A stretch of DNA of 64,000 bases from Minisyncoccia bacterium (GTDB lineage Bacteria; Patescibacteriota; Minisyncoccia; UBA6257; JAVHQB01). The stretch covers positions 194 through 64,193 of the forward strand of contig JBAQYG010000029.1 in assembly GCA_049299915.1 (NCBI GenBank), given 5' to 3'. Shown piece after piece: positions 11,819-40,381 of the stretch. Under the pieces are notes generated by a model. That model was not told the DNA's origin. It saw nothing but the letters and a program-made list of their open reading frames with translations, and searched no databases. Position 1 is the stretch's first letter; every line of letters begins with the position of its first letter. A program made the position numbers and the translations under genes.

Positions 11819-12529
11819 CTAACGATTGTATTTGGAGAAATGGCCAATGTCATGATCCTTATAGAGCTTGGGTAGCATATCGTCTGGGGTCCAATTCTTT
11901 TTTATTTCTTTTAAGCTCCCAAATGATTGGTATTTGTTATTACCCTTTAAATGATACTCGTCGGAAATCTCTACGGGAACAGTCGAATGGAAAATAATTT
12001 GGGCAATGCGTAAACCTACAGGTAAGGGGATAACGTTGTTACTAAAATTAGTGATTTCCATAGTCCAGCGATTTACGTAGCCAATATCTCCCCAACCAGC
12101 ACATTTGCATACAGCAATACCAATTCTTCCCAAAGAACTGCGAGCACGCATTTCGGTGGTCACTGCATCTAATTTTCCAGGGATACCATTCTTACCTCCA
12201 ATAAACTCGATAGTATGGGCCAAAATAGTTTCATTGGGTTCAAGCAAAATTACACAGTCATTTGGTTTTAAGTTATTAAAGGGGTTGAGCTTGGAACGAA
12301 GAATTTTTATGGGAACAGCTTCTTCAAGCTCTGAATACATTCTTCTGAGGGACTTGTCATAAAAAGGATTCACAGCTTGAATACGTTTTACCTGAGTTTG
12401 TCTAAAAAAATACTTTCCTAAACGGACATCATAACTAGTATTGGAAAGATTACCATTATCGAAGGGGTCGATAATAATATTTCCGGCTTTGTAATGTTTG
12501 AGGATTTCTGGTTTGGATAAAACACTCAT
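11819..12529 (-). CDS. dcd: dCTP deaminase / dUTPase-fold family protein, longer than canonical Dcd.
   Basis: N-terminal IIIDPF...SYDVRLG and central SSLGRIGIAV...GWGDIGY...WTMEITN motifs typical of Dcd. The product is 236 aa against about 190 aa for canonical Dcd. Confidence 0.65.
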   Translation of the reverse strand: MSVLSKPEILKHYKAGNIIIDPFDNGNLSNTSYDVRLGKYFFRQTQVKRIQAVNPFYDKSLRRMYSELEEAVPIKILRSKLNPFNNLKPNDCVILLEPNETILAHTIEFIGGKNGIPGKLDAVTTEMRARSSLGRIGIAVCKCAGWGDIGYVNRWTMEITNFSNNVIPLPVGLRIAQIIFHSTVPVEISDEYHLKGNNKYQSFGSLKEIKKNWTPDDMLPKLYKDHDIGHFSKYNR

Positions 12530-12585
12530 ATTTTTTATATTTTAATTAGGGCAATTGTATCATAGTTTCAGGGGATGCTCAAACG

Positions 12586-13083
12586 TTGCCGTTAGGCCTA
12601 TTTGGTGATTTAATAAGTTTAATGACTGAATCAAAACAAAAATTATTAGAGTTAGAAAAAGAAGGAATATATCTTTTTCATGGTTCACCAATCGAGAATT
12701 TAGAGGAGTTAAAACCGCATCAAGCTTATATAGTTTCGCGAGGGGGCAAAGATATGGTTAAAGACGGTGAGCCTTGCATCGCGGCTACTCCATATTTAGA
12801 AATAGCAATTTTTGCAGCCTTCATGTCAAAGAGTAAAAGTAACTTTTCTGTTTCAGCTACTAGCATGGAAGATGTTGTTATAAAATTGAAAGCAAGCGAA
12901 GAGGCCCTTGAAACTGCAAAAGGCCAAAAAGGATTTGTCTATGTTTTAGATAAAGCCGGATTTGTCCCAAGATCTGGAAATAATTATTGTATGGAATGGA
13001 GAAGTAGTGCTTCTGTTAAGCCATTATGGATGTTTGAAGTGAGCTATGAAGATTTACCAAAAAATATCGAAATCATTAAATGA
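12586..13083 (+). CDS. Hypothetical protein.
   Basis: A 165-aa ORF with a TTG start in the track (an in-frame ATG lies 12 codons downstream). No recognisable motif. Confidence 0.4.
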   Translation: MPLGLFGDLISLMTESKQKLLELEKEGIYLFHGSPIENLEELKPHQAYIVSRGGKDMVKDGEPCIAATPYLEIAIFAAFMSKSKSNFSVSATSMEDVVIKLKASEEALETAKGQKGFVYVLDKAGFVPRSGNNYCMEWRSSASVKPLWMFEVSYEDLPKNIEIIK

Positions 13084-13100
13084 TCTAGATCACCTTAATC

Positions 13101-13523
13101 ATGAAGAAAGCAATCAAAATAATTCAAAAAGATATTATCCAAATTTTTAGAAGTGGGGTAAAAAATAAACCCTTAAATTTGTGTTGCAAAGACAGTTGTA
13201 GTGAAGCTTCCCGATTGGTCGCAATTTGGATAAAAAGAAAATTTAAGAGAGCCTCAGTATTTATATTAAAAGGAGAACATAAACCTAAAAAATATCATGA
13301 CATCTTAATTACCCAGTTAGGTAATGAATTTTATTTAATAGATCCAACGGTTTGGCAATTTTTTAAGAACAAAAGAAGTATTTTGATAGGAAAATTTAAT
13401 AGTATAAATGAACTCTTATTACGTGCCAAGGAACTATATGGTGGCAAATGGGGAAACATAGAAAAATTTACAAATTTTAAAGAGGAAAAGCGATTAATTA
13501 AAATAATAAAAAGTAATTCGTGA
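13101..13523 (+). CDS. Hypothetical protein, possibly a papain-like / NlpC-P60-like fold given an ordered Cys, His, Asp pattern.
   Basis: A 140-aa protein with CCKDSC, then KYHDIL, then LIDP in that order. The fold assignment is weak. Confidence 0.4.
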   Translation: MKKAIKIIQKDIIQIFRSGVKNKPLNLCCKDSCSEASRLVAIWIKRKFKRASVFILKGEHKPKKYHDILITQLGNEFYLIDPTVWQFFKNKRSILIGKFNSINELLLRAKELYGGKWGNIEKFTNFKEEKRLIKIIKSNS

Positions 13524-13567
13524 CAAAAACTATTCTTCCGAAAGGCTATTAAAACAGTAATATAATT

Positions 13568-14215
13568 ATGCAGTTAGAGCTTTTACATAAAGAATACGAC
13601 TCATTACAGGCTTTATATGGTGACCCTTCACTAAAGTCTATTTATGGTGCAGGCTGCACTAAGAATCCCAAAATAATGTTAGTGTTTATGAATCCAACTG
13701 CTACAAACGTGTCAGCTAAAAAGAATTGGCAGGGATTAAGAGCTCCTTGGTTGGGAACTAAAAATATATGGAATATTTTCTATGAATTAAAATTATTATC
13801 CAAAGATTCATTTGATAGGATACAACATATGAGGCCCGAAGAATGGACTGCTGGTTTTGCCGATAGAGTGTATTCTGAATTAACTGATAAAGGAATATTC
13901 GTTACAAATCTAGCTAAATGTACTCAAGTAGATGCCAGACCATTAAAAAATGATATATTTAAAAATTATTTAGATTTAATACTTAAAGAAATTGATTCTA
14001 TTAATCCTAAAAATATAGTTAGTTTTGGCAATCAAGTTAGTTCAATTTTATTAGGAAAACCAATTTCTGTGGGTGATTATGTTGGTACTCAAAATGAGAT
14101 ATTGAAAATTGGCAAAAAACGATTTAAAGTTTATCCAACCTATTATCCAGTAGGGCAGGGAAGACGTAATATGCCATTAGCAGTAGGAAGAATAGAAAAG
14201 ATTTTGAAATATTAA
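13568..14215 (+). CDS. Uracil-DNA glycosylase-superfamily protein (SMUG/family-4-like).
   Basis: MLVFMNPTATN resembles the UDG-superfamily motif A (GMNPG-like), and the size fits. The C-terminal motif is not clearly recognisable. Confidence 0.4.
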   Translation: MQLELLHKEYDSLQALYGDPSLKSIYGAGCTKNPKIMLVFMNPTATNVSAKKNWQGLRAPWLGTKNIWNIFYELKLLSKDSFDRIQHMRPEEWTAGFADRVYSELTDKGIFVTNLAKCTQVDARPLKNDIFKNYLDLILKEIDSINPKNIVSFGNQVSSILLGKPISVGDYVGTQNEILKIGKKRFKVYPTYYPVGQGRRNMPLAVGRIEKILKY

Positions 14216-14261
14216 TAATTTCTAATGCAGTTCAATATTAAATATCAATTTCTTATTTTAT

Positions 14262-14963
14262 ATGAATAAATATATTTACTTAATTGGAAATCTAATATTT
14301 TTTATCATTTGGCTAGCCATTATTGTTACCAGAAAGGATCTGAGGTTTAAAATGGTAAAAACGAGCCTTATGGGTGGTGCCATGGGTATATTGTCAGAGT
14401 TCTGGTACTTTAAAGATTATTGGCGACCACCATCAATTTTAGGACAAGGAGTTACCTCTATTGAAGATTTTTTGTTCGGTTTCTTTATCACAGGAATCGC
14501 TGTTTCCATATATGACATAGTTTTTGGTTTTAAGAACATTTCAGGCGAGAAACCTCACAAATTATTATTCGGTTTATTATTTATCCTAGTAATGAGTTCT
14601 TTATTATTTTTAAGTACTTGGAAAGGAGTCAATTCAATTTTAGTAAGTGAAATAGCATTCTTACTTTGTACAGTAATAATAGTTCTAATAAGGAAAGACC
14701 TACTTAAACCCGCTCTAATATCGGGACTATTGCTGGTATTAGTTATTCTTCCGATTTATGTGCTGCTTTTCAACATTCTTTCTCCTAATTTCTGGCGCCT
14801 ATATTGGCTATTGAATCAAACTAAATTCGGTATTTTAGTTTTTGGCGACATTCCTTTAACCGAATTATTTTGGTACTTTTATTGGGGTTGTTTTTGTGGA
14901 GCAGGTCATAATTTTTATTCAGGTACTAAAAAAGTTCCTTTAATTAAGATTTCTGGGCAATAA
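14262..14963 (+). CDS. Polytopic membrane protein, possibly lycopene-cyclase-domain-like.
   Basis: About seven hydrophobic helices, and a PxxE-type motif (IPLTELFWYF) repeated weakly. The assignment is speculative. Confidence 0.45.
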   Translation: MNKYIYLIGNLIFFIIWLAIIVTRKDLRFKMVKTSLMGGAMGILSEFWYFKDYWRPPSILGQGVTSIEDFLFGFFITGIAVSIYDIVFGFKNISGEKPHKLLFGLLFILVMSSLLFLSTWKGVNSILVSEIAFLLCTVIIVLIRKDLLKPALISGLLLVLVILPIYVLLFNILSPNFWRLYWLLNQTKFGILVFGDIPLTELFWYFYWGCFCGAGHNFYSGTKKVPLIKISGQ

Positions 14964-15077
14964 GATTTCTAGTTCTTTCTACCATAAATTCCTAGCTAAT
15001 CCATATGATTATAAAAGAAATCTGAGTATAATTATAAGTAAGGTGGAGAATATTAGGTAAATTATTGTATAAATATA

Positions 15078-15701
15078 ATGATTTATAGAATTCAAAAAAT
15101 CAGTCGTTCAAAAATAGATAAAATGTATACGAAATCAATGAAAGAGTTAAATTCTTTTTTTCCAATCAATTGGACCCATAATCTCCCGAATCTAATTTTA
15201 GTTCCAGACAGAGAGACCATTAATGCTTTAAAAGGGCATAAAACAGAAGATTGGGTTGTTGGGTGGGCTGACCGCAATAAAGTGTACTTATTAGATGGTA
15301 AGAACTTTAATAAAGAAAGTAGCCATCAATATTCTGATGAGGAATTCTTTGTGTCTATAAAACATGAACTTGCACACTGTTTTTCTTATGTATTAGCCGA
15401 TTTCAGTAGAATACCTATTTGGCTTCTTGAAGGAATCGCTATATATGTTTCTGGTGAATATAAACAGCAAACGAAGCCTAAAAAATTTAAAAACTTTATT
15501 AATTATTTTGATAAAAGTGGGGAAGGAGTCTATTCAGAATCTGGTTTTGCGGTTATGTTTTTGATAGAGAAATATGGGAAAAAGAAACTTTTATCTTTAT
15601 TGAAATCGTTAAAAAAAGTTAAATCAAAAGCAGATTTTGCTAAATTGTTTAAATCTATTTATGGTTTCGAATTGTCCTATAAAAATTTTAGAGTAATTTG
15701 A
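15078..15701 (+). CDS. Putative zinc metallopeptidase-like protein (HExxH).
   Basis: An HELAH motif followed by a downstream Glu (LLEGIA), as in zincins. Confidence 0.4.
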   Translation: MIYRIQKISRSKIDKMYTKSMKELNSFFPINWTHNLPNLILVPDRETINALKGHKTEDWVVGWADRNKVYLLDGKNFNKESSHQYSDEEFFVSIKHELAHCFSYVLADFSRIPIWLLEGIAIYVSGEYKQQTKPKKFKNFINYFDKSGEGVYSESGFAVMFLIEKYGKKKLLSLLKSLKKVKSKADFAKLFKSIYGFELSYKNFRVI

Positions 15702-15846
15702 TTTTTTACCCTTCCTTTATTATCACCCATCTCCAGTAAGCTCTTATGGATGTAAAAAGAACCTAGCTATAATTTCCAAGAAGATAAGTAAAATTAAACA
15801 GATTATTAAATAAGTAAATTAACATCAATTAATAATAAATAATATT

Positions 15847-16020
15847 ATGACTATGTATTATGCAGGTCTAATGTATGTTGCAATAGCTATAGTTATATTT
15901 TTAGTTTGCCGAGTCCTGGTTCTATGGTATTGGAAGATTGATACAATAGTGTCATTGCTCCAAGATATCTCAGGCAATTTGTCTAATATAGTGCAAAAGA
16001 CAGAGCAAAAACAAGCCTAG
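15847..16020 (+). CDS. Small single-TM protein (57 aa); not in the ORF track because it is under 60 aa.
   Basis: ATG-initiated ORF MTMYYAGLMYVAIAIVIFLVCRVLVLWYW... lying in the AT-rich gap upstream of the RloC-like gene. Confidence 0.25.
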   Translation: MTMYYAGLMYVAIAIVIFLVCRVLVLWYWKIDTIVSLLQDISGNLSNIVQKTEQKQA

Positions 16021-16306
16021 TTGAATTTGAAATATTAGTATTTTGTCAGTGTTTTTATTTGCCCAAACCCTTGAGAGGGGTTATAATATAGGTGTTAAAA
16101 ATCTATAATTTTGTGGAATACAACATGCATCCTAGTGGTAATAATGAGGGTTGTTCCACTTATACTATGAGTCTGTTTTCAGAGCGTTATATTGAATTGG
16201 CCTAAATGGTCAATTTTTTTAATGCAATAATATATATAATTGACGGATTATAGTCATTATAATGAATTTAATAAATCGGTTAGAAAAATCGTAAAAAAAT
16301 AATCTT

Positions 16307-18604
16307 GTGGATAAATGGATACGATTACTGGAAATATTAAAAAACAAAATAATGAAAGTAATGATAAAAAAAATTGTAAAAATTAAAAATTATAGTGTAT
16401 TCCAAGATTTCTCTTGGAACTTGTTATTGCCTGATTTTAAAAAGGTTAATATTATTTATGGTTTTAACGGATCTGGCAAAAGCACTCTATCAGAGCTGTT
16501 TAGATTCTTAGAAATAAAAAATAAAGATTTTTTAAACACGGGAGTTGAGTTTGATATTGAAATTGACGGTGGCAATCACATAAAAAATACTGGTACTAAT
16601 TTGTTTACAAAAGATTATCAAATAAAGGTTTTTAATCAGAGTTTCGTAGGGGAAAACATTGATTTTATCCAAGGAAAAACTAAAAAAATTACCCTTTTTT
16701 TAGGAAAAGAAAATCAAGAATTACGAAATCAACTAGAAGATAAAACTAACAGAATTGATATCTTGGGTAAGGAAATAGAGGATAATCTCAATGAACAACA
16801 AGAAAAAGAAAAATCAATTGAAAAATCTTTTACGGAAATAGCTAAAACTATATCTGCCATAGAAACTGGTAATGCTAGAAGAAATTATAGGTCTCCAGAA
16901 GCTAAGCTATCTTTTAATTTATTGCAAAATAAACAAGAAATCGATGAGGCAGAATTAGAACAAAATAAAAAAATTTTAACTGCAGAAAAGAGAGAAAACA
17001 TTCCTGAATTATCTGCAAAAAAATATAAGATAGAAATCGAAACCATAAAAATAAATATAGATAGAATATTAAAAACAAAAATATTAATAAGTATTATAAA
17101 GAGATTAAAAGATAATTTTGACATCTCTCAATGGGTAGAATCCGGTCTGGCTATTCATAAAGATCATAATAGCCGAGTTTGCGAATATTGTCTTCAAAAA
17201 ATTCCAAATAAAAGGCAAAAGGAATTGGAAGAATATTTTAACGATGCAAATAAAAAATTGAAAACAGAAATTGATAGTCAAATAAAACTGATAGATGATT
17301 TATATTCAAATATAGAAAGCATTATTATACCAGACGAAAATAAATTTTATCCAGACAAAAAACAATCAATGATAACTTATAAGTCTATATTCATTAAAAA
17401 AAGAAATAATATATTATTGTTATTGGATGAATTCAAGTCTAGATTAGAAGAGAAGAAGGGTAGGCAATTTGAAAAATTGGTTTATAATCCGACTATAAAT
17501 AATGGGAACCAATTTGATGATGTATTAGATAGCATAGAAGCTTTAATCAAATCTCATAATGTTTTTAATGATAATTTGGAAAAAAATATAGATGAAGCTA
17601 GGAAAAAAATAGAAACACATTATTTATCTACCATATTTGATGAAGTGAAAAATTTTGAAGTAAATATCAAAGAATTAGAAGCAAAAGTTATAAAAGATAA
17701 GAAAAATAAAGATACAATTAGAGAAGAGGCGGACACTATTAGGGGCAAGATATCTAATGTGCACGCCTCTTGCGATGAATTAAATAGAAAAATACATCAA
17801 TTTTTAGGTAGAGATGAAATAAATTTAGAAGTTACAGCAGACCAACAGGGGTTTACCATTAAAAGGAAACTTAAGAATGCAACTAATTTAAGTGAAGGAG
17901 AAAAAACAGCTATTGCGTTTGTTTATTTTTTAGAATCTTTATCTGATAATGGATTAAATGCTAAAGACGAAATTATTGTGATAGATGACCCAGTATCAAG
18001 TTTTGATTCGAATTCATTGTTTCAAGCATTTGCTTTTATGAAAGAACTTATAGAAGACCCAAATCAAATTTTTATAATGACACATAATTTCCAATTTTTA
18101 AGATTAGTTTTAAATTGGCAAAAAGGAAATAATCGAGGAAAAGACTGCTCTAGTTATATGATAAATAACTATATGAATACCACTAATATTAGATGTGCAA
18201 GAATAGAAAAATTGGATAAATTATTAGAGTCGCATGAAACTGAGTACCATTATTTATTTAAATTATTGTATGAATTTAACACTGAGGCCGATGAAAAGAA
18301 AAATGATTTGGCCAGAGTTTATAATTTGCCTAATATTGCAAGAAAAGTATTAGAAACATATTTAATGTTCAGGGTACCAAGCAATCAAGGTACTTATGAT
18401 AAATTATATTCTTCCTATATTAAATTCGATAGAATTAAAAAGGCAGCGATTTATAAGTTTTCAAACGATCAATCGCACATAACTGGTGATGATTTTAGTC
18501 CTTCCCTTATACAAGAAACTAAAAATAATATCCGAGATTTATTGGATATGATACAACAAAATTCACAAGAGCATTATGAGATTATTGTTAGCTCGTTAGT
18601 ATAG
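16307..18604 (+). CDS. RloC/PrrC-like anticodon nuclease candidate (AAA_13 ABC-type ATPase).
   Basis: Three features support this:
- ABC ATPase motifs: Walker A GFNGSGKST, signature LSEGEKTAIAFVYFL, Walker B IIVIDDPVSSFD and H-loop MTHN.
- A CxxC zinc hook (CEYC) within the long central coiled-coil, as in RloC.
- A C-terminal nuclease-like motif NIARKVLETYLMFRVP followed by a conserved His (SHITGDD). Confidence 0.65.
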   Translation: MDKWIRLLEILKNKIMKVMIKKIVKIKNYSVFQDFSWNLLLPDFKKVNIIYGFNGSGKSTLSELFRFLEIKNKDFLNTGVEFDIEIDGGNHIKNTGTNLFTKDYQIKVFNQSFVGENIDFIQGKTKKITLFLGKENQELRNQLEDKTNRIDILGKEIEDNLNEQQEKEKSIEKSFTEIAKTISAIETGNARRNYRSPEAKLSFNLLQNKQEIDEAELEQNKKILTAEKRENIPELSAKKYKIEIETIKINIDRILKTKILISIIKRLKDNFDISQWVESGLAIHKDHNSRVCEYCLQKIPNKRQKELEEYFNDANKKLKTEIDSQIKLIDDLYSNIESIIIPDENKFYPDKKQSMITYKSIFIKKRNNILLLLDEFKSRLEEKKGRQFEKLVYNPTINNGNQFDDVLDSIEALIKSHNVFNDNLEKNIDEARKKIETHYLSTIFDEVKNFEVNIKELEAKVIKDKKNKDTIREEADTIRGKISNVHASCDELNRKIHQFLGRDEINLEVTADQQGFTIKRKLKNATNLSEGEKTAIAFVYFLESLSDNGLNAKDEIIVIDDPVSSFDSNSLFQAFAFMKELIEDPNQIFIMTHNFQFLRLVLNWQKGNNRGKDCSSYMINNYMNTTNIRCARIEKLDKLLESHETEYHYLFKLLYEFNTEADEKKNDLARVYNLPNIARKVLETYLMFRVPSNQGTYDKLYSSYIKFDRIKKAAIYKFSNDQSHITGDDFSPSLIQETKNNIRDLLDMIQQNSQEHYEIIVSSLV

Positions 18605-18772
18605 AGACATAAGTAGACAGAATTGCTTTTCTATAGAATTTGAACTTCGATGATTTCAAGAAAACATTAAAAAATCTTTCAAATTGATTGTTTTTATTGT
18701 TTCCTAATATATTATTTATTTATGCGTATCTTAAAAATTAATCCCTAATTGTTTTTGTGATACAATAGAGAC

Positions 18773-21819: not shown

Positions 21820-23139
21820 ATGACCCAAGAAGAAGCTTTAGCTGTTTTAAAGTGTGGCTACAATGTTTTTATTACAGGAGCAGCTGGTTCTGGCAAAACC
21901 TATCTTTTAAGAGAGTACATAGAATATTTAAGAAAACATGGGATTGGAGTCGGAGTGACTGCTTCAACAGGCATTGCCGCTACTCATCTTGATGGTACCA
22001 CCATTCATTCCTGGTCTGGTTTAGGCATGAAAGATATTTTAGATGAAGACGATCTTAGAAAACTCAGTCGAAAACCTTATTTAAAAGAACGATTCAAAAA
22101 AACCAGTGTTTTAATTATCGACGAGATTTCTATGCTTTCTCAGGAGCAATTCGAGAGTCTGGATTTAATCTGCCAAAAGCTAAAGAAAAATGAAAGAAAT
22201 TTCGGTGGAATGCAGATAATTCTTTGCGGAGATTTTTTTCAATTGCCACCGGTAGGCAAAGAAGATGCTTTTGTCTGCGAATCTGAAGTGTGGCAAAGAA
22301 CTAATTTTAAAGTTTGCTATCTCGAAGAACAATATCGGCACCTGGACAAAAAGTTTGTTACCATTTTAGATTCAGTACGGAATAATCAAGTAATAGGGAA
22401 AACGTTGGAACTTTTAAATAAAACACTAACTAAATCAGAAGATGTCTCTAATAAAATAACTAAACTCTATACTCACAATGCAAACGTAGACGAGATAAAT
22501 AGCCAGGAGCTTAGTGCTATGCCTGGCAGGGGAACAACCTACAAAATGACTGACTATGGTGACGAGCATTTGGTTAAGAATCTAAAAAATAGTTGTTTGG
22601 CTAGCGAAGAATTAGTTCTCAAGAAAGGTGCTCTGGTTATGTTTTTAAAGAATAATTTTGAATTGGGATATGTAAACGGCACCCTAGGAACAATTTCTGA
22701 ATGTGAACCAGGGGAAAACCCTGTTGTTTTGACCAAAGATGGTAGACACATTACCGTTCCTCTAGCCAATTGGGAAATAGAAGATGAACAAGGGAAAAAT
22801 GTTTTAGCCATGGTTCAACAATATCCCTTGCGATTAGCTTGGGCTATTACTGTGCACAAAAGCCAAGGGATGACTCTCGATGAAGCCCTCGTCGATTTGT
22901 CTCATTCCTTTACTCCCGGAATGGGCTATGTAGCCCTTTCCCGTGTTAGAACACTCACTGGTCTTCATCTTTTAGGGTTTAATGATATAGCGCTCAAGGT
23001 TAGTAACAAAGCTATTAAATTAGATAAAATTTTTATAGAGCAGTCCAAAAAAATACAAAAAGAGATTTTTAAAACAGAAGATTATAAAACAAGGCAAAAA
23101 GAATATCTAGATTGGCTGCAAACTTTTAGTAATGCTTGA
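21820..23139 (+). CDS. Pif1/RecD-family 5'-3' DNA helicase.
   Basis: Walker A GAAGSGKTY, Walker B LIIDEISML, and the C-terminal VHKSQGMTLD and YVALSRV motifs typical of the Pif1 / AAA_30 / UvrD_C_2 architecture. Confidence 0.75.
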   Translation: MTQEEALAVLKCGYNVFITGAAGSGKTYLLREYIEYLRKHGIGVGVTASTGIAATHLDGTTIHSWSGLGMKDILDEDDLRKLSRKPYLKERFKKTSVLIIDEISMLSQEQFESLDLICQKLKKNERNFGGMQIILCGDFFQLPPVGKEDAFVCESEVWQRTNFKVCYLEEQYRHLDKKFVTILDSVRNNQVIGKTLELLNKTLTKSEDVSNKITKLYTHNANVDEINSQELSAMPGRGTTYKMTDYGDEHLVKNLKNSCLASEELVLKKGALVMFLKNNFELGYVNGTLGTISECEPGENPVVLTKDGRHITVPLANWEIEDEQGKNVLAMVQQYPLRLAWAITVHKSQGMTLDEALVDLSHSFTPGMGYVALSRVRTLTGLHLLGFNDIALKVSNKAIKLDKIFIEQSKKIQKEIFKTEDYKTRQKEYLDWLQTFSNA

Positions 23140-23263
23140 AAAAAATAATTAAAGTGCTATCATCTCCAAGCTGTTCTTTACAAAGCTATTAGGCAATTAA
23201 GTGAGTATCACTTGTTGACCCTTACTTAATTGCTTAGCCAAAAAATAGACAAGGAGGTGTAGA

Positions 23264-23935
23264 ATGAGAATCAATAGTGACGAACTGATTGATTGTATTT
23301 ATGAACTTCTTTCTCCAGACGAGAAGAGGATTGTTGTTTGGCAAAAACTGGGAGAGAAACATTGCCGAGTTACTTTCTTTGATAAAGAAGCTCTTGATCA
23401 AAAGAAAGAAAAAGAGCAAGAGAGAAAAAGAGACATGCTGTTCAGCATTGTTTGTAAAGCCGACAATGACTTAGTCATTGTTCACTGCAATACAGATCAC
23501 CAATTAGCACTCAGTATTTGTTTAGCCCTTTTAAAAAAGGGTTTAGATGTACGTTGTTTTGGACATGATGATCAAGGGGTGACAAAGAGAATTATCTTTG
23601 ACACTACTGTTTGCGATTTTTGTGAGTTTGTAAACAACTTACAGAATATTGCAAACGAACTTAACTTAGCCCTCAGCTTAAATGATAATCCTTTAGGAAA
23701 TTATAACGAGGGTTATCTTCTAGTTCGTATGAAAGAAGCGAATGGACGGGCTAAGATTATTGGGATTTTAATTAACCCTGGTGGTATCTTCCGAGTGACA
23801 ATACTTGATGGGTCGATTGATTTTTCTTATTTGATTTCAAAAATGAATAAGATAAACAATCGATTAATTATCAGAGAAACGATCTCAACCCACACGGGGA
23901 AAAAAGTGGTAACACGTTACAATTATTGCCACTGA
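23264..23935 (+). CDS. Hypothetical protein; first gene of the compositionally distinct island.
   Basis: A strong SD (caaggaggtg) sits 7 nt upstream of the ATG, and GC is visibly higher than in flanking genes. No known motif. Confidence 0.5.
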   Translation: MRINSDELIDCIYELLSPDEKRIVVWQKLGEKHCRVTFFDKEALDQKKEKEQERKRDMLFSIVCKADNDLVIVHCNTDHQLALSICLALLKKGLDVRCFGHDDQGVTKRIIFDTTVCDFCEFVNNLQNIANELNLALSLNDNPLGNYNEGYLLVRMKEANGRAKIIGILINPGGIFRVTILDGSIDFSYLISKMNKINNRLIIRETISTHTGKKVVTRYNYCH

Positions 23936-24108
23936 AGGCTCATTCCCTAGGCCTCAAATGCACATTAAAGCAGCTATTAAATTTATCGGTAGCTGCTTTT
24001 TCTTTGTCTTGCTATATATGATTTTATATTGTATAAATTAAGTATCTAAGCCAAAGTTTTGGCTGCTAAGTAGCACAGTAACAAGTCCAAAGCAAAGGAG
24101 GTAGGGAA

Positions 24109-25545
24109 ATGAGTGAAGAAGAATTACAGGGCCATGATATTGATTTGAGCCGTTTGGGCCCAACAACAAGTATTCGTCTGCTAGACACCAATGTTCTTCT
24201 GGACGATGCAAACGCAATGGAGACTTTTGATGACAGTTGGGTCTTTGTCGGACTTCATACACTGGCAAGTCTGAATAAAATCATTGATAACAGAAATATC
24301 TATCCAAGGACATTTGTAGACGCTAGTTTCGCTATTCAAGCACTGTCTGCATATGAATCTAAAGGCGACCTCAAAAAGGGCGTACCTATGGGCAAAAGTC
24401 TTTTGTTTGTAAACTATGATGGTGAAGATTGGGATGGATTACCTGAGGAAACAAAGAAAGACAAAAAGGATAATACCTTAATTGGTATTGCCAATGGTTT
24501 GAGAAAAAGGCTGTGCGATAATGGTTTGAAACAAAGTGTGATTATTGTTTCTAATAATATCTACCTGAGGATGCAAGCCAATGCCTGTGGTCTTATTGCT
24601 CAGCCTTATAACCAAAGCATTAGAACCATGGAACAACTCTATTCTGGAATTGTGCGAGTTAACCTCAACAAGGATGAAGAACAAAGCATTCTTCCAGACT
24701 TTCGTAGACCAAATGGAGCCATAAGCATAGACGAACTACAAAAAACCCTTCATGGTAAAAAATTGGTTCCTAACCAATTTGTTTACCTTATGGCGGGATC
24801 CAAAAGACAGGCCATTGGTATCTACAATGAAAATGATAGAAAGCTTTCCTACGTCGATTTCAGTGCCCCAAAGCTTCCTCGTAGTTTGGACAAGCCTCTG
24901 GTAGCTCTTAATCCAGAACAGGCCTGTGCAATATATGCACTGAATGATATACATAAGAAAATAGTTTCAGTTGCAGGAGTTGCTGGAACTGGTAAGACTG
25001 TTACTGCCTATGACGCTGGTCTAAGACAAGTCATTGGCAAATTATATGAAAGACTCGTTATCTTTAAGCCAATCAGGGAGGCAAGTGATGCGGAATTATG
25101 TGCTCTTCCTGGTGGTGTAGACGACAAAATGGCCCCTTGGGTAGCTCCAATTATAGCAACTCTCAAGAGGCTCTCTTCAAAAGGACCTAAGGACAAAAAC
25201 CTGGAGCAACTAATAAAAACAGGGGTGATTCAGATCCGGCCTATCAATTATGCAAGAGGTGATTCTATCGAGAACTCTTTCATAATTGTAGAAGAAGCCC
25301 AAAATCTTACACGTAATGAAATTAAGCTTATTATTACGCGGGTAGGAAATGGGTCTAAGATTGTTCTCATTGGCGATCCAACACAATGTGACAATCCACG
25401 TTTGGACTTTGGTTCAACTGGTCTCACATTGGCCATAGAGAAATTCAAAGGACACAAACTGGGTGATGATGACGGTGTTTGTCATGTTACCTTGATTGAG
25501 TCAGAGAGATCTTCGGTAGCTGCTCTTGCTGCTAAGCTTCTCTAA
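24109..25545 (+). CDS. PIN-PhoH fusion ATPase (PhoH2/YlaK-like).
   Basis: N-terminal PIN domain (IRLLDTNVLLDD ... D residues) and C-terminal PhoH P-loop ATPase (VAGVAGTGKTVTA, IIVEEAQNLT, LIGDPTQCD). A strong SD (aaaggaggtag) precedes it. Confidence 0.8.
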   Translation: MSEEELQGHDIDLSRLGPTTSIRLLDTNVLLDDANAMETFDDSWVFVGLHTLASLNKIIDNRNIYPRTFVDASFAIQALSAYESKGDLKKGVPMGKSLLFVNYDGEDWDGLPEETKKDKKDNTLIGIANGLRKRLCDNGLKQSVIIVSNNIYLRMQANACGLIAQPYNQSIRTMEQLYSGIVRVNLNKDEEQSILPDFRRPNGAISIDELQKTLHGKKLVPNQFVYLMAGSKRQAIGIYNENDRKLSYVDFSAPKLPRSLDKPLVALNPEQACAIYALNDIHKKIVSVAGVAGTGKTVTAYDAGLRQVIGKLYERLVIFKPIREASDAELCALPGGVDDKMAPWVAPIIATLKRLSSKGPKDKNLEQLIKTGVIQIRPINYARGDSIENSFIIVEEAQNLTRNEIKLIITRVGNGSKIVLIGDPTQCDNPRLDFGSTGLTLAIEKFKGHKLGDDDGVCHVTLIESERSSVAALAAKLL

Positions 25546-25575
25546 AGTACTTGTATTTATCACAGGGCCCCATGC

Positions 25576-25601
25576 AACGCATGGGGCTTTTTCATACAAT
25601 A
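25576..25601 (+). terminator. Rho-independent terminator after the PIN-PhoH gene.
   Basis: GC-rich hairpin gccccatgc/gcatggggc with loop aacg, followed by TTTTT. Confidence 0.7.
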
Positions 25602-25738
25602 TTAGTTATTGACGATATTAATTGATTATGTTACGGTATTGATGCACTTATACAATTAAAAAGGAGGTGATTAAAGTACACGGTCTGGAAGTAATATCAA
25701 GGTATTTTTTTTATACAATCCGATATAGGAGGTAAGGA

Positions 25739-26182
25739 ATGCGTGATCATGATAGGCTGGGATCTTTCAAAAGAGGTCTGGATGGACTATGTGAAAAAAA
25801 TGGTTGGCATATTGGCAAGCCTACTACCTTGCAAACGGTATCCAGGGTGGTACAGCTTGATCCTTTAGCCATAAATGACGATGATCAGTTGATCAATTAT
25901 CTCAAGAATCTTTACTCCGGAGCCATGTTGGAGTGGGAAATCTTGTGTTTCCCCGAAAGCTGTAAGGAATTATCCTTTCTAGCCTACTTCAAGCCCGGAT
26001 GTAGTGGAAAAGAGATTGCCATCGTAGAAATGACTTCACAGTTCTACGACTATTATCATGTTAGTCCTCAACAAGCGCAAGATTCTTTCTGGACTACCAT
26101 AGAGAAAGATTCTAAGCTACCCGTCTTTGGAGTAGTCTGGAAATCAGGCAGACGTCCAATCGTTTGCCATTGCGGTGATTAA
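25739..26182 (+). CDS. Hypothetical protein (147 aa) within the island.
   Basis: Strong SD (ataggaggtaagga) and higher GC. No known motif. Confidence 0.5.
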   Translation: MRDHDRLGSFKRGLDGLCEKNGWHIGKPTTLQTVSRVVQLDPLAINDDDQLINYLKNLYSGAMLEWEILCFPESCKELSFLAYFKPGCSGKEIAIVEMTSQFYDYYHVSPQQAQDSFWTTIEKDSKLPVFGVVWKSGRRPIVCHCGD

Positions 26183-26194
26183 GAGGATACATAT

Positions 26195-26602
26195 ATGGAT
26201 AATAGCGTCATCGCCAAACGCTTAGAAACATCAAGTAGGTTTGAAAACACAATGGCAACTCTGGCGAAGCGAGAAGGCTTGTTTCCTATTACTCATATAA
26301 AACAAGGAGATTGTTTGCATCAGGATGCTGCAAGCATGCCTAGTGCCGTTTACCTTGAGACGGTATATGGCCACTTGTTTTATTACAGGGAAACCTTAAC
26401 TTGTTTGAAAGTTGGCGTAATGTTTGGTTTTGGTAAAGTTCGAGATCGTTTCATGGTAGAGGTTGCCTCTCATTACGAGGGTATCTTCCGTGAAAAGTTC
26501 TTACCAACAATCAGAGCCAAATACTCAAGAAAGCAAATCCTGGTTTTTTCTAACCAGGGATCGATACTCTATCGTAGTCCTTCATTTAAGGCCCCGGGAT
26601 AA
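26195..26602 (+). CDS. Hypothetical protein (135 aa) within the island.
   Basis: SD aagagga present and higher GC. It is followed directly by a terminator hairpin. Confidence 0.5.
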   Translation: MDNSVIAKRLETSSRFENTMATLAKREGLFPITHIKQGDCLHQDAASMPSAVYLETVYGHLFYYRETLTCLKVGVMFGFGKVRDRFMVEVASHYEGIFREKFLPTIRAKYSRKQILVFSNQGSILYRSPSFKAPG

Positions 26603-26620
26603 AACTCGGGGCATTTTTGT
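26592..26620 (+). terminator. Rho-independent terminator closing the island.
   Basis: Hairpin ccccg/cgggg with loop ggataaaact, followed by a T-rich tract. It overlaps the stop codon of the 26195..26602 ORF. Confidence 0.55.
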
Positions 26621-26669
26621 TTGCCAAATAGATGTGAGAGCCTTATACTATAGTAAATTTTTAGTTTAT

Positions 26670-27245
26670 ATGAAGAAAAAGATTTTAATAATTCTAGTTT
26701 CAATCATTTTGATATCTTTGGGAGCCATCGTGGCTTATAATTTTTTTAATAATAAAATAGTTTCTTCTATGCCCCTTTCTCGTCAAGGAAAGATAGAAAC
26801 AAACTATTTTAAATTAGTGTTACCTTCTGGATGGGAGACTCAGGAACCAGCTTCAGAAAATTTTGTTTTAATAGCTTATAGAAAAGAAGACTCTAAAGAT
26901 TCTTTGGCAAGGAAAATAAACTATAAAACCAGTCTCTTTATTGCCAGAGAAGAACTGAATGGTAAAACCATTGTGGATTATGTAGCCCTTTTAAAAGAGG
27001 GTGTCCAACGAAAGAAAGAGAATGTTTTATTTCATTCTGAAAATGAAACTTCTTTCAACGGTCAAAAAGCCTATCTAATCGATGTAGAGTTAAAAGAAAA
27101 TGATATAGAATTTAAAAGTATCTTTGGTGTGATAGAGGGAAAAAATCAAGAAGTTTGGGTAATAAGTTTTAATACTCCCAAATTAGATTGGATTACAACG
27201 GCACCTCAGTTCTATAGTATTCTAAATAGCTTCTCAATTAATTAA
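26670..27245 (+). CDS. Membrane-anchored or secreted hypothetical protein (191 aa from the ATG at 26670; the ORF track extends it artificially to 26463).
   Basis: Starts MKKKILIILVSIILISLGAIVAYNFF (signal/anchor). The upstream track extension overlaps the previous gene and its terminator. Confidence 0.45.
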   Translation: MKKKILIILVSIILISLGAIVAYNFFNNKIVSSMPLSRQGKIETNYFKLVLPSGWETQEPASENFVLIAYRKEDSKDSLARKINYKTSLFIAREELNGKTIVDYVALLKEGVQRKKENVLFHSENETSFNGQKAYLIDVELKENDIEFKSIFGVIEGKNQEVWVISFNTPKLDWITTAPQFYSILNSFSIN

Positions 27246-30763: not shown

Positions 30764-33283
30764 ATGGATCCAGATAAAATAATTATAAAAGGTGCGCGCG
30801 TTCATAATCTGAAAGACATCAGTTTAGAAATACCAAAAAATAAATTGGTAGTTTTTACTGGTCTTTCCGGCAGTGGTAAATCATCACTAGCCTTTGATAC
30901 TATTTTTGCCGAAGGGCAGCGTCGTTATATAGAATCTCTTTCTCCTTATGCTCGTCAATTTTTGGGCCAAATGGATAGGCCCGATGTAGATGAAATCACT
31001 GGATTGTCACCAGCCATTGCCATAGATCAAAGGGCTTTAAGCCATAATCCTAGATCAACCGTAGGTACGCTTACGGAAATTTACGATTATCTGAGAGTTC
31101 TCTATGCTCGTCTCGGAGAAGTGTTTTGTCCAATTTGTGGTAGAAAAATTCAAAAATTATCACCCGAAGAAATAGTAGATATTATTTTAAATAAAGGGAG
31201 TGAACTTAAAGAAGAGATCGTTACAATAATGTCACCAGTAGTTCGTTCTAGAAAAGGAGAATATTATCAAACACTCTATGACTATTTAAATTTGGGTTAT
31301 GGTCAAGCTAGAATAGACGGCGAGCTCAGATCCTTAAGGGAACCATTAATTCTTTCTCGGTATAAGAACCATAGCATTGATATCGTTATTGATAGAGTAA
31401 TGCTTAAAGATAGCAGTCGTTTATTTGAAGCGGTAGAAAATGCTCTGGATTATAGTAAGGGGCTAGTGACGGTTATTTTTAAAGAAGGGGGTTTAAAAAA
31501 AGGAAACGATGAGACACTCCTTTCTAGTTTATGGACATGTCCAGAAGATAATTTTGCCTTCCCTGAAATAGAACCACGTCTATTTTCTTTTAATAGTCCT
31601 TCTGGAGCTTGTGAAGAATGCCATGGATTAGGAAGAGTTGGTTTTGAATTAGACAAAACTTGCCCTAAATGTGAAGGCAAAAGATTGAAGCCGGAAGCTC
31701 TTTCTATAAAAATAAGAAATAAAAATATTTATGAAGCTACATCCCTAACAATAGAAGGGGCACATGAATTTTTTAATGCTTATAAAAAAAGTTTGAACGA
31801 AAGACAATTAAAAATAGCCACTAACTTATTGAAAGAAATTATTGATAGACTTCAATTTATGTTAGAAGTTGGGTTAAATTATCTGACCCTCAATAGAGAG
31901 GCTGAAACTTTGTCGGGAGGAGAAGCTCAAAGAATAAGATTGGCGTCACAAATAGGCTCTCAATTGTCTGGCACTTTATATGTATTAGATGAGCCTACAA
32001 TCGGACTCCACGAAAGAGATACTATAAAATTGATTAATACTCTAAACGCTCTTAAAGATCAGGGAAACACCCTTGTGGTTGTAGAACATGACGAGAAAAC
32101 TATAGAAGCAGCTGATTATCTAGTAGATTTAGGACCGGGAGCGGGTAGAAACGGTGGAGAAGTAGTGGCCATAGGGGGGCGAGAAGAATTAATGAAAAAT
32201 CCTAAAAAGTTTCCCAGGTCGCTCACTCTGAAATATTTAACCGGGCAGACTAAGATTAAATTACCGAATAAACGAAGAGACAAAAAGACAGAAGAAATAA
32301 AAATCATAGGAGCTACTAAAAATAATCTTAAGAATATAGAAGTTGATTTTCCCTTGAGGAAATTTGTAGTTCTCACGGGTGTTTCGGGAAGCGGTAAATC
32401 AACTCTCCTCTACGATGTTCTGTATAAAAACTTAATTCACATTAAAAATCATTTCAATAAACCACTTGAAGGGTGCAGTAAAATAAATGGCAGTGAATAT
32501 ATAGATAAGGTGGTGGTAGTAGACCAATCTCCTATAGGCAGGAGTCCTCGGTCTAATCCAGCTACTTATACTGGTATTTGGACACCCATTAGAAAGTTTT
32601 ATGCCGAATTACCTGATGCCCGAGAAAGAGGCTATACAGCCTCACGTTTTTCCTTTAATGTGGCTGGGGGACGTTGTGAATCATGCGAAGGGGCGGGATT
32701 CAATCTTATTGAGATGCATTTTATGCCACCAATTATGGTGAAATGCGATGTTTGTGGCAGTAAGCGTTTTAATAGAGAAACTTTACAGGTGAAATACAAG
32801 GGCAAGAGTATAAGTGATATTTTAAGCTTAACCATAGAAGAAGCAGCTGATTTTTTTAAAGAGAATTGGCAAATAGCCGAAAAATTAAAAGTCTTAGAAA
32901 ATGTAGGACTCGGTTATTTACAATTAGGTCAATCGGCTACAACACTTTCGGGAGGAGAAGCACAAAGGATCAAGTTAGCCCGAGAACTTACTCAGCCACT
33001 AGGAAAGAAATCGCTTTATCTTTTAGATGAACCAACAGTAGGTCTTCATTACTATGACATTGAACTACTTTTACAAGTCATTAATAAATTAATAGAAAAG
33101 GGAAATAGTGTGATAGTAATAGAACATAATATGCAGATTATTAAATCAGCTGATTATGTGATTGATTTGGGCCCAGAGGGTGGCGATAAAGGTGGCAAAT
33201 TAGTCGCCAAAGGAACCCCCGAAGAAATAATTAAAAGCAAAAATTCATACACTGGCTTATACCTTAATGATTATTTGAAATAG
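30764..33283 (+). CDS. uvrA: Excinuclease ABC subunit A (short, 839 aa).
   Basis: Two ABC modules ([14 protein letters not shown] and [13 protein letters not shown]), signature LSGGEAQRI repeated twice, and zinc-finger Cys clusters. Confidence 0.9.
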
Positions 33284-33305
33284 TGCTTCGATATAAATAA
33301 AAAAA

Positions 33306-33333
33306 TACCCAGACTAGTAGCCTGGGTATTTTT
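33306..33333 (+). terminator. Rho-independent terminator after uvrA.
   Basis: Hairpin acccag/ctgggt followed by a T-run. Confidence 0.7.
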
Positions 33334-33410
33334 GACTTACCCCTATCAGTGTGTTATAAGCAAAGTAATTGAACGTTCTTTACATACTATATACAAAAGG
33401 AGGGAAAGAG

Positions 33411-33665
33411 ATGGATTGGGTAGAAGTAATACATCAAGCCACGAATTTGTGTGCCGGTTCGTACAAAATCATCGTAAGAGATAACAACAGCTTTGCGATG
33501 CAATCTAGACGAAGCGAAGTCCATCTGAGTATAGAAAAGGGTACCAACGACAGTATTATCATAAGGTCTGGTTACTGGATTCCAGCTACTGGAATAGAAC
33601 TACTTCTAAACTGGTTCGAAGAGAAACATTATCCCTATACTCACATTCGTGATTGGCCAGAATAG
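33411..33665 (+). CDS. Hypothetical protein (85 aa from the ATG at 33411) in a foreign-signature micro-cassette.
   Basis: Strong SD aaaggaggg 6 nt upstream and higher GC. The track start at 33369 would lack an RBS. Confidence 0.45.
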   Translation: MDWVEVIHQATNLCAGSYKIIVRDNNSFAMQSRRSEVHLSIEKGTNDSIIIRSGYWIPATGIELLLNWFEEKHYPYTHIRDWPE

Positions 33666-33683
33666 CCAAAAAAGGAGGACGAG

Positions 33684-33980
33684 ATGATAGACATTCAAGT
33701 CTTAGACCAACTTACCTTCGGGCTTTTTCCAGGTGAAAAGCTTGTGAAAAATCCAGACGGTAGCTTTACCTACTCGAAAAGAGAAGATATCAAGATTGAT
33801 GATAAAAGTGAAAAAGTTGAAGTCAGGCTGGAGCAACCAGCTTCTGAGGAGAAAACGATCCTCTTGTCTTCTAACGCCGACTTGGATGCTACAGGTCTCT
33901 TGCCATTTCTAGTATGGTTGGGAAACCATAAGTACAAGTATTCTTATTGTTCTCCCACCATGCTGTGTTTTTCATCATAG
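33684..33980 (+). CDS. Hypothetical protein (98 aa); second gene of the micro-cassette.
   Basis: Strong SD aaaaaggagga 6 nt upstream. It is followed by a terminator hairpin. Confidence 0.45.
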   Translation: MIDIQVLDQLTFGLFPGEKLVKNPDGSFTYSKREDIKIDDKSEKVEVRLEQPASEEKTILLSSNADLDATGLLPFLVWLGNHKYKYSYCSPTMLCFSS

Positions 33981-34001
33981 AAAACTGCTCTTTAACCAAA
34001 A

Positions 34002-34033
34002 GCCCCGCCATATCCATGCGGGGCTTTCTCATT
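34002..34033 (+). terminator. Rho-independent terminator after the micro-cassette.
   Basis: Hairpin gccccgc/gcggggc followed by a T-rich tract. Confidence 0.6.
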
Positions 34034-34237
34034 TAATGTAAGTATGCTGTATCTATAAAACACAAAAAGGACCCTTGCGGGACCTAATCGTGCATTGACT
34101 AGCTCTTGCGAACTAATCAACTATAAGAAGTATAACAAATAATGAGTATTTGTCAATATTGGAGAAAAAGATGAAGAAAATTGTAACTCAGAAGAGAATG
34201 TGTTAGTATCAAAATGTTAAGATATTTAATTTTAAAT

Positions 34238-40117: not shown

Positions 40118-40381
40118 CTATGGAACCATCGAGATGATGTCGAAGCCAAGGGTGGTTTCATTATAGACAGCCACCTCGGTTACCCTGATGCCAGGATAAT
40201 ACACATAAGGTTTTTTCCAAATCTTGTATTTGACGTTGGAAATAGCTTCTTTCGCGCTTCTCGCGTAAGTAGTCTCTTGAAACCGCCTGCCTTCAACATA
40301 GGCAGTGACTCTGTAACAAGTCAAATTGACCCTTGATTTCAAACTACGAACATCTCTCTTAAATGGATATCCTTTTGGCAT
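40118..40381 (-). CDS. Hypothetical basic 87-aa protein with foreign signature.
   Basis: Strong SD (aagagggggtg) upstream on the minus strand, higher GC, and its own terminator. No motif. Confidence 0.5.
   Translation of the reverse strand: MPKGYPFKRDVRSLKSRVNLTCYRVTAYVEGRRFQETTYARSAKEAISNVKYKIWKKPYVYYPGIRVTEVAVYNETTLGFDIISMVP

Follow-up and report, generated by a model that had tools for sequence, protein, structure and literature searches.

The 64-kb window analysed here (the whole stretch of 64,000 nucleotides, from contig JBAQYG010000029.1 of a Minisyncoccia bacterium, assembly GCA_049299915.1) contains a block of four open reading frames (ORFs) on the same strand (23264-26602 by ORF calling). 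An earlier note made from the letters alone had read them as a 223-aa protein of unknown function, a PIN-PhoH fusion, and two unknown proteins of 147 and 135 aa, and this gene content (ORF1, PIN-PhoH, ORF3 and ORF4, in that order) was confirmed by ORF calls and profile searches. The block is preceded by genes encoding a ClpB-like AAA+ protein, a 64-aa protein and Pif1, and followed by genes encoding a PsbP-like lipoprotein-type protein, a DUF5652 protein, a fragment of a major facilitator superfamily protein, UvrB and UvrA. The best genome match of this Pif1 is a metagenome-assembled genome of Candidatus Paceibacterota, and a protein identical to ORF3 is recorded for a Minisyncoccia bacterium, which places the organism among the Patescibacteria. 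DNA comparison with a near-identical strain (L027) places the borders of the exchanged segment at 23272/23273 and 26613/26614, close to the limits of 23150 and 26630 that the note had given. Hairpins followed by T-runs lie 3' of ORF1, PIN-PhoH and ORF4, and the block is therefore predicted to consist of three transcription units: ORF1, PIN-PhoH, and ORF3-ORF4, the last two genes being separated by only 12 nucleotides (nt) and apparently translationally coupled. Sequence inspection detected no signal peptide or transmembrane segment in any of the four proteins, which makes direct roles at a host surface unlikely.

The position of the block is fixed in its lineage. The gene order ClpB-like, 64-aa gene, Pif1, block, PsbP-like, DUF5652 is common to loci L003, L004-9, L010, L011, L027, L028, L062 and L063; further loci were recovered with Pif1 as the search anchor, and all ten haplotypes recovered carry the block or part of it at the same Pif1/PsbP-like site. 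All relatives whose Pif1 shows 79% identity or more have the whole or part of the block in the same architecture at the same site, which argues that the block is not an insertion; the site is held in clade members down to approximately 74-83% flank protein identity, and about 45 loci with a more distant Pif1 (46-56% identity) have none of the four genes within 8 kb. Of the alternative that the note had named as fatal to its own interpretation, that these are conserved core genes in a constant position, only the constant position was found: the genes themselves are not conserved, and some genomes lack one or more of them.

The content of this fixed site differs profoundly even between nearly identical genomes. 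Between the window and L027 (a 545-kb contig), DNA identity is 94.9% to the left of the block, ending at 23272, and 96.2% to its right, starting at 26614, and the flanking proteins are 97-100% identical, but ORF1 is only 39% identical, PIN-PhoH 48%, ORF3 37% and ORF4 38%. Across the haplotypes, identity between allele classes is 22-48%, the full ranges being 35-83% for PIN-PhoH, 25-93% for ORF3 (which is present in every haplotype with a contig that reaches its slot) and 22-96% for ORF4. The four genes are exchanged one by one. The window shares its ORF1 allele with L003 (91% identity, the flank proteins being 72-91% identical) but not PIN-PhoH (44%), ORF3 (35%) or ORF4 (26%); L027 and L063 share ORF1 (86%), ORF3 (93%) and ORF4 (96%) but not PIN-PhoH (39%), their DNA alignment being lost exactly from the PIN-PhoH start codon until the ORF3 promoter; L027 and L062 share PIN-PhoH (83%) but not ORF1 (32%); L003 and L005 are 82% identical in PIN-PhoH and 65% in ORF1; and ORF4 has been replaced independently of ORF3 between the window and L011 (ORF3 81%, ORF4 22%). 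Identity matrices for the ten haplotypes are incongruent between the block genes and the flanks and among the block genes themselves, and each sampled genome has a different combination of alleles. In DNA alignments the breakpoints lie at gene borders: the ORF1 start codon, the PIN-PhoH start codon (24120), the ORF3 promoter (approximately 25583-25607), the ORF3 stop codon (26180) and the final terminator (26603-26614). Horizontal acquisition, as the note had proposed, is upheld in the form of horizontal allele exchange (more than 50% difference between alleles inside flanks that are 95-96% identical), but none of the sources that the note had considered (host organism, phage or plasmid) is supported.

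Genes may also be missing or interrupted. L011 and L012 lack both ORF1 and PIN-PhoH, Pif1 being followed directly by ORF3 (junction 23157|25583), and L056 lacks PIN-PhoH, so that ORF1 is followed by an ORF3-like gene (junction 24019|25607). In L005-L007, three samples of the Joint Genome Institute (JGI), PIN-PhoH is cut near codon 394, at the same junction in each, by an element of 54% GC content. At the start of this element (L005 6014-7681, also in L006 and L007) lies a large serine recombinase with Resolvase, Recombinase, Zn_ribbon_recom and DUF4368 domains; the element is possibly a prophage, or an integrative element, by which PIN-PhoH is targeted or inactivated. The ORF1 protein of this lineage is 64% identical to that of the window.

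Within allele classes, the ratio of nonsynonymous to synonymous divergence (dN/dS) is 0.09-0.17 for block genes (0.12-0.17 for ORF3) versus 0.01-0.07 for flanking genes, which shows that the block genes are functional and under purifying selection, with constraint somewhat weaker than in the flanks. Between classes synonymous sites are saturated, and dN of PIN-PhoH between the window and L027 (0.43) is far above the core divergence of the clade; since allele divergence so greatly exceeds core divergence, the alleles predate the clade or stem from unsampled relatives. The ORF1 allele common to the window and L003 is younger than its flanks (dS 0.46 versus 3.1 for the adjacent Pif1), direct evidence that it moved between the two lineages. 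The locus combines the properties of a hypervariable balanced locus: divergence of alleles much greater than that of the flanks, incongruent gene trees, and purifying selection within classes. An assembly chimera was considered as the origin of the window haplotype and rejected, as five independent assemblies match it at 98.4-100% nucleotide identity with all junctions covered. A contig of 3,724 bp (L064, JGI 3300037067) corresponds to window 23080-26803, i.e. the block with about 200 bp on each side, an extent to be anticipated if strains living side by side have different cassettes, so that the assembly graph forks at either border.

These data bear upon the idea that the four genes are a fast-evolving housekeeping operon of RNA metabolism, with the PhoH2-type protein serving as a general RNA helicase and RNase. 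PhoH2 proteins are indeed widespread, and modulation of a regulon by them is known in mycobacteria (PMC7390352); all alleles retain their catalytic motifs and are under purifying selection. Against this, PIN-PhoH is absent from L011, L012 and L056 and disrupted in L005-L007, the gene trees are incongruent, and uniform fast evolution cannot yield alleles that are 39-48% identical within flanks that are 95-96% identical, so this idea is largely refuted and retains very little credibility.

In composition and translation signals the block stands apart from the rest of the window. The note had called it compositionally distinct, and it is: the GC content of 23273-26613 is 0.396 versus 0.344 window-wide, a value reached by 0.1% of windows of the same size, and that of 24109-26613 is 0.409, matched by no stretch of the same size. 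Taken gene by gene, the block exceeds the 64 other ORFs both in GC content and in GC at third codon positions (Mann-Whitney p=0.0016 and 0.0009, respectively), and the codon-usage distance of the block (4.97) is the most deviant among four-gene blocks, the maximum of the 58 others being 4.31. ORF1 of the window, at GC 0.356, is not enriched. Predicted duplex energies with the anti-Shine-Dalgarno (anti-SD) sequence are -12.7, -12.9, -11.5 and -5.8 kcal/mol for ORF1, PIN-PhoH, ORF3 and ORF4, respectively, versus a median of +0.35 kcal/mol for the other ORFs of the window (p=0.0009). The claim of strong AGGAGG-type SD sequences on all four genes therefore holds for the first three, and ORF4 has a site of moderate strength (AAGAGGA, 26181-26187, inside the 3' end of ORF3); the claim that such sites are rare elsewhere also holds, comparable ones occurring only at 33684, at 40118 on the reverse strand, and on a spurious ORF over tRNA-Val. 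Core genes of the window and of the relatives' loci almost never have a recognisable SD sequence.

The same signature recurs in the relatives. Each block allele is richer in GC than its own flanks (approximately 0.40-0.43 for PIN-PhoH, ORF3 and ORF4, 0.35-0.45 for ORF1, and approximately 0.30-0.39 for the flanks); AAGGAGG-type SD sequences are present on ORF1, PIN-PhoH and ORF3 alleles, with a weaker one on ORF4; and among 102 genes of six relatives' loci, 15 of the 16 with a strong SD sequence are block genes, the sixteenth being a GC-rich accessory ORF homologous to an SD-led pair of the window at 33.4-34.0 kb. Because deeply diverged alleles are all GC-rich and mostly have strong SD sequences, the elevated composition is a stable property of the module and no sign of recent arrival. 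The retention of SD sequences between alleles with as little as 35% protein identity argues that these sites are functional. A subgroup of Parcubacteria (about half of them, according to a survey) is reported to lack the anti-SD motif in 16S rRNA (PMC9297842); no rRNA gene, 16S included, is present in the 64-kb window. The strong SD sequences and higher GC content may define a separate expression class within a genome that is otherwise poor in SD sequences.

A foreign island of recent acquisition, whether its donor was phage, plasmid or host organism, with a composition not yet ameliorated, would likewise account for GC content, codon usage and SD sequences that differ from the rest of the window and for sharp borders against a sister strain. 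It would not account for the finding that every clade member has the block at this one site, for the absence of relatives of the ORF1 family outside the locus, or for the higher GC content shared by all the diverged alleles and the strong SD sequences shared by most. None of the four genes encodes a recombinase, there is no tRNA nearby and there are no flanking repeats beyond chance, and the combination of integrase, att-type repeats, tRNA target and variable site that characterises an integrative mobile island was not found at the block borders. Profile scans of 2.9 million viral contigs with PhoH, ORF3 and ORF1 gave no relatives, and phage PIN-PhoH proteins do not exceed 28% identity. A foreign island is therefore also largely refuted, and its probability is very low.

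The coding sequences are joined by linkers (Table 1) that are more conserved than the genes they separate. Linker 1 is 71-78% identical at the nucleotide level between alleles whose coding sequences cannot be aligned, and recombination breakpoints are located at its ends; its 5' untranslated region (5'UTR) holds a small hairpin (GCCAAA..TTTGGC) for which there is no covariation support. Linker 2 is kept even where ORF3 directly follows Pif1 (L011) or ORF1 (L056). The right recombination border lies inside the closing terminator, identity with L027 being 96% from 26614 on. From these alignments it may be inferred that the linkers, together with the relatively conserved C-termini of PIN-PhoH and ORF3, act as homology anchors for cassette exchange. 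Of two hairpins that the note had taken to delimit the block, the one at 26592-26620 was found at 26591-26612, and the other, at 25576-25601, is misplaced by about 10 nt and is internal to the block; the hairpin 3' of ORF1 (23967-23999), which is retained in all alleles, had been overlooked. The inverted repeat between the putative ORF1 promoter and the SD sequence could be an operator or a 5'UTR hairpin. No Rfam family matched the intergenic linkers. In the window, the extra AAGGAGG and GTG of linker 2 open a possible leader ORF of 22 codons (25661-25738) that ends in the real SD sequence of ORF3, and the L027, L003 and L063 type of leader has ATG-TGA after the extra SD sequence, plus two hairpins; the element might encode a leader peptide, serve as a start-stop element or fold as a structured 5'UTR.

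Table 1. Genes, signals and linkers of the four-gene block (window coordinates)
Feature	Position	Strand	Description and basis
ORF1 upstream region	23136-23263	+	part of conserved left flank; 95% identity to L027 until 23272
ORF1 promoter-like site	within 23136-23263	+	TTGAAA-16-TATCAT with TG; promoter scan
Imperfect inverted repeat	23190-23236		GCAATTAAGT...ACTTAATTGC; between putative ORF1 promoter and SD
ORF1 SD	23251-23257	+	AAGGAGG; sequence
ORF1	23264-23935	+	223 aa, orphan, cassette slot 1
ORF1 terminator-like hairpin	23967-23999, T-run to 24004	+	fold -14.5 kcal/mol, z -3.3
Linker 1	24005-24108	+	PIN-PhoH extended -10 promoter TTGTATAAAT, 5'UTR, SD AAGGAGG at 24095-24101
PIN-PhoH (PhoH2-type)	24109-25545	+	478 aa, cassette slot 2
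PIN-PhoH terminator hairpin, GC-rich, with T-run	25564-25592 (hairpin 25564-25590)	+	fold -18.5 kcal/mol, z -4.5
Linker 2	25607-25738	+	ORF3 promoter and leader (TTGACGATATTAAT...GTTACGGTAT...TATACAAT)
Extra SD-like site	25661-25667	+	AAGGAGG; followed by GTG in window, GTG or ATG across alleles
True ORF3 SD	25727-25732	+	AGGAGG; within linker 2
ORF3	25739-26182	+	147 aa, orphan, cassette slot 3
ORF4	26195-26602	+	135 aa, orphan, cassette slot 4
Closing terminator hairpin, GC-rich, with T-run	26591-26620 (hairpin 26591-26612)	+	terminator scan; fold -16.4 kcal/mol

The PIN-PhoH protein consists of a PIN domain (approximately aa 25-167; Pfam PIN_4, 7.7e-10, and 5e-13 to 6e-18 in other alleles) and a PhoH P-loop ATPase domain (approximately aa 266-450; Pfam PhoH, 1.5e-42) with Walker A at G290-T297 and Walker B at F391-N399. 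PHROG 2765 matches it over its full length (8e-74), and the structure 3b85 of the PDB is matched at 5.8e-22. Its alignment with the NCBIfam PhoH2 equivalog NF053827 is nearly end-to-end (protein 24-478, model 5-423 of 427), but the score of 185.3 bits is below the equivalog cut-off of 680. The PhoH2-like architecture that the note had recognised is thus sustained, and the protein belongs to a distant branch of PhoH2. Ninety-four residues are invariant over five alleles, among them D26, E38 and D104 of the PIN domain, Walker A (G290-x-AGTGKT297) and Walker B (E395-E396-x-Q-N); the position equivalent to the fourth acidic residue of the PIN domain, assigned by eye, is N in some alleles. In PADLOC there were only partial matches, of the PhoH Walker B region to Nhi (1.9e-9, aa 364-427) and to AbiO. 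The mycobacterial PhoH2 is an ATP-dependent RNA helicase and a sequence-specific RNase (Andrews & Arcus, PMC7390352), and by analogy with the characterised PhoH2 proteins the protein of the window may be an ATP-driven RNA helicase that feeds RNA to the PIN RNase.

Like PhoH2 of the mycobacterial PhoAT-PhoH2 pair (PMC7390352), the protein has an N-terminal PIN_4 domain and a C-terminal PhoH ATPase domain, co-linear over the full length, with the Walker A and B motifs and PIN acidic residues retained, and an unrelated gene lies immediately upstream. The locus differs in that this upstream gene encodes 223 aa, has its own terminator and, judging from the sequence, neither overlaps phoH nor is co-transcribed with it; in that the upstream gene does not co-vary with PIN-PhoH; in that two more orphans follow downstream; and in that it is hypervariable between strains, which is not reported in the PhoH2 literature covered. 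A type II toxin-antitoxin (TA) system, with PIN-PhoH as toxin, ORF1 as antitoxin in the manner of PhoAT-PhoH2, and ORF3-ORF4 as a second pair, would explain why all loci that carry PIN-PhoH also have ORF1 upstream, why ORF1 persists where PIN-PhoH is deleted (L056) or disrupted (L005-L007) and is lost jointly with it in L011, the asymmetry that such a system predicts, and why all located ORF1 members are at this locus; ORF3 and ORF4 are 12 nt apart and apparently translationally coupled, and an upstream partner is known for the mycobacterial PhoH2 (PMC7390352). The resemblance ends there: phoAT is short, co-transcribed with phoH2 and overlapped by it, whereas in the 173-bp gap between ORF1 and PIN-PhoH a terminator hairpin of the former and a conserved promoter of the latter indicate that the two are not bicistronic, and ORF1 lacks a DNA-binding or known antitoxin domain. 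One class of ORF1 is paired with PIN-PhoH alleles that are 39-44% identical, one class of PIN-PhoH is paired with ORF1 alleles that are 32% identical, and ORF3 and ORF4 assort independently (81% versus 22%). These natural allele swaps argue against a simple cognate TA model for PIN-PhoH, fitting cognate neutralising pairs poorly unless binding uses a conserved surface. A TA system is therefore unlikely, and the mycobacterial arrangement with an upstream partner, to which the note had appealed, does not describe this locus.

The three orphans gave nothing significant in Pfam, PADLOC, PHROGs or NCBIfam, whether the window alleles or ten divergent alleles were searched, and their profiles matched PDB sequences only at noise level. 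Profile-profile comparison detected no relationship between ORF3 and ORF4 or between ORF1 and ORF3. Residues H33, C34, C75, C86 and C98 of ORF1 are invariant over eight alleles, and its predicted structure (predicted local distance difference test score, pLDDT, of 82) consists of repeated alpha/beta units without a fold match; resemblance to Ssu72/DUSP-like phosphatases was rejected because the hits were weak (E approximately 0.1) and the CX5R motif is absent. A word-index search found six homologues of ORF1, and a profile run exhaustively against 1.84 billion representative proteins found only three clusters of the family, whose members on readable contigs are each directly 3' of Pif1, i.e. 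at this same locus. ORF3 has a conserved C-terminus (...VVWK...P.VCHCGD) and an AlphaFold2 model of pLDDT 32.

Population-genetically the locus, with its observed anatomy, allele swapping, presence/absence variation and purifying selection, can be described with high confidence: it is a hypervariable locus specific to a small Minisyncoccia clade (Paceibacterota, candidate phyla radiation or CPR), fixed between the core genes for Pif1 and the PsbP-like protein, in which the coding sequences between the linkers are four exchangeable cassettes with old, deeply diverged alleles that homologous recombination within the population reshuffles gene by gene at the linkers. As to function, the locus as a whole is most plausibly a conflict locus, probably of defence, under balancing selection and with PIN-PhoH as its RNA-degrading effector, a statement to which we assign a probability of roughly 0.55. 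A conflict or defence role is favoured because hypervariability at a fixed site, presence/absence of genes and ancient reshuffled alleles match loci of immune type, and also because of a neighbouring strain-variable candidate defence gene and the disruption by a mobile element in one lineage. Phages or other genetic parasites might maintain the polymorphism through balancing (negative frequency-dependent) selection; PIN-PhoH might degrade RNA of the invader or of the host; and the orphans would have roles in regulation or sensing, or be independent partners, instead of serving as cognate inhibitors matched to particular alleles. The stress, defence or TA-like role that the note had envisaged survives as conflict or defence, and not as cognate TA pairing.

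The candidate defence gene (window 16307-18604), 4.7 kb upstream of the block, encodes a 765-aa AAA_13 ATPase that matches over its full length the PADLOC candidate single-gene system PDC-S06 (2e-214). It is situated in a stretch of 26-30% GC (approximately 12500-18700) that cannot be aligned with L027 and is apparently another strain-variable region.

Several points weigh against a defence system. None of the four proteins matches a full-length defence model of PADLOC-DB v2. The orphans have no recognisable domain and are tied to PIN-PhoH by adjacency and restricted co-occurrence; relatives of ORF3 and ORF4 come from word-indexed search alone, and their true distribution may be wider. Independent assortment speaks against tight physical partnerships, and the four genes may be unrelated tenants of a hot spot. 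Gene-wide positive selection is absent (dN/dS well below 1), diversifying selection being deduced from the pattern of alleles. The sample is about ten haplotypes, all of them metagenome assemblies, and mosaics other than that of the window could include assembly errors caused by strain switches.

A rival interpretation is a recombination hot spot that houses four unrelated accessory genes, whose role need not be defensive (e.g. an episymbiont's niche or host interaction), hypervariability being the product of local recombination and relaxed constraint without any coordinated system. The genes assort singly, PIN-PhoH alone or ORF1 with PIN-PhoH is missing from some haplotypes, dN/dS is 2-4 times the flank values, and unrelated small ORFs occupy another slot (33.3-34.2 kb) that has the SD and GC signature of the block. 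However, four-slot order and linkers are kept in each haplotype with a contig that spans all slots; the allele classes are far older than the core divergence of the clade, which would require active maintenance; the proteins lack signal peptides and transmembrane segments; and ORF1 is found nowhere else. A mere hot spot is for these reasons rather improbable. A bolder form of the conflict-locus interpretation would make the block a new multi-component RNA-targeting CPR defence system, with PIN-PhoH as effector and three new protein families, in which strong SD sequences denote a conditionally translated class of conflict genes and SD-led translation is a gate that opens only in a particular state of the ribosome or cell, such as infection; taken jointly, these proposals are possible but doubtful.

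Precedent for a defence-type role of PIN-PhoH without phoAT is provided by Synechococcus WH8102, in which inactivation of the host PIN-PhoH raised cyanophage DNA replication and progeny (Fedida & Lindell 2017, PMC5490813), a phenotype consistent with anti-phage activity. By analogy the block resembles the SYNW1946 operon, which restrains cyanophage Syn9 (PMC5490813), in having a host-encoded PIN-PhoH with an adjacent gene, small in Synechococcus. The organism and the partner gene are unrelated, and gene-by-gene allele swapping is not in that report. With defence islands and hot spots the locus shares core-gene flanks, strain-specific content, presence/absence variation, distinct composition and the proximity of PDC-S06, but unlike them it has constant families in a constant architecture, only the alleles changing by slot-wise homologous recombination at the linkers, with no swap for unrelated systems and no insertion of mobile elements, and the block matches no known defence family. 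With phage PIN-PhoH and PhoH proteins (PHROG 2765 and PHROG 170) the protein shares the full-length match to phrog_2765 (8e-74), but identity to the best phage proteins does not exceed 28%, and the neighbours in the window are chromosomal core genes.

A large part of bacterial diversity belongs to the CPR bacteria (Patescibacteria), whose genomes are tiny and most of which are uncultured. To our knowledge, little has been learned of their resistance to phages. A genome of approximately 0.5 Mb here maintains a dedicated slot of about 3.3 kb with polymorphism at the level of immune genes, reshuffled between co-occurring strains. PIN-PhoH proteins and variable defence hot spots are already known. 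What appears to be undescribed in the searchable literature is a four-slot architecture that stays constant while alleles are exchanged slot by slot at conserved linkers, the confinement of three orphan families to the locus, and an SD and GC signature of this kind in a CPR genome poor in SD sequences. The three new protein families and the diverged PhoH2 branch are candidates for RNA-targeting defence.

The signature of strong SD sequences, higher GC content and GC-rich hairpin terminators apparently marks the flexible gene pool of this lineage. It could help to locate further conflict genes in these lineages, and it prompts one to ask how translation of SD-led genes proceeds in SD-poor genomes. 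The second accessory slot of the window (33278-34210), between UvrA and DUF2207 and missing from L003, has the same signature as the block (AAGGAGG SD sequences, GC approximately 0.40 and a GC-rich hairpin terminator) and contains two paralogous ORFs (33411-33665 and 33684-33980, approximately 84 and 98 aa) with no match in Pfam or PADLOC. In the equivalent position, L011 has a fused, SD-led homologue of 150 aa (10797-11249, 39% identity). A possible further member of this class of SD-led accessory genes is an ORF on the reverse strand (40118-40381, 87 aa, GC 0.42), likewise without a Pfam or PADLOC match, whose SD-like site AGAGGGGGTG is strong (-12.4 kcal/mol).

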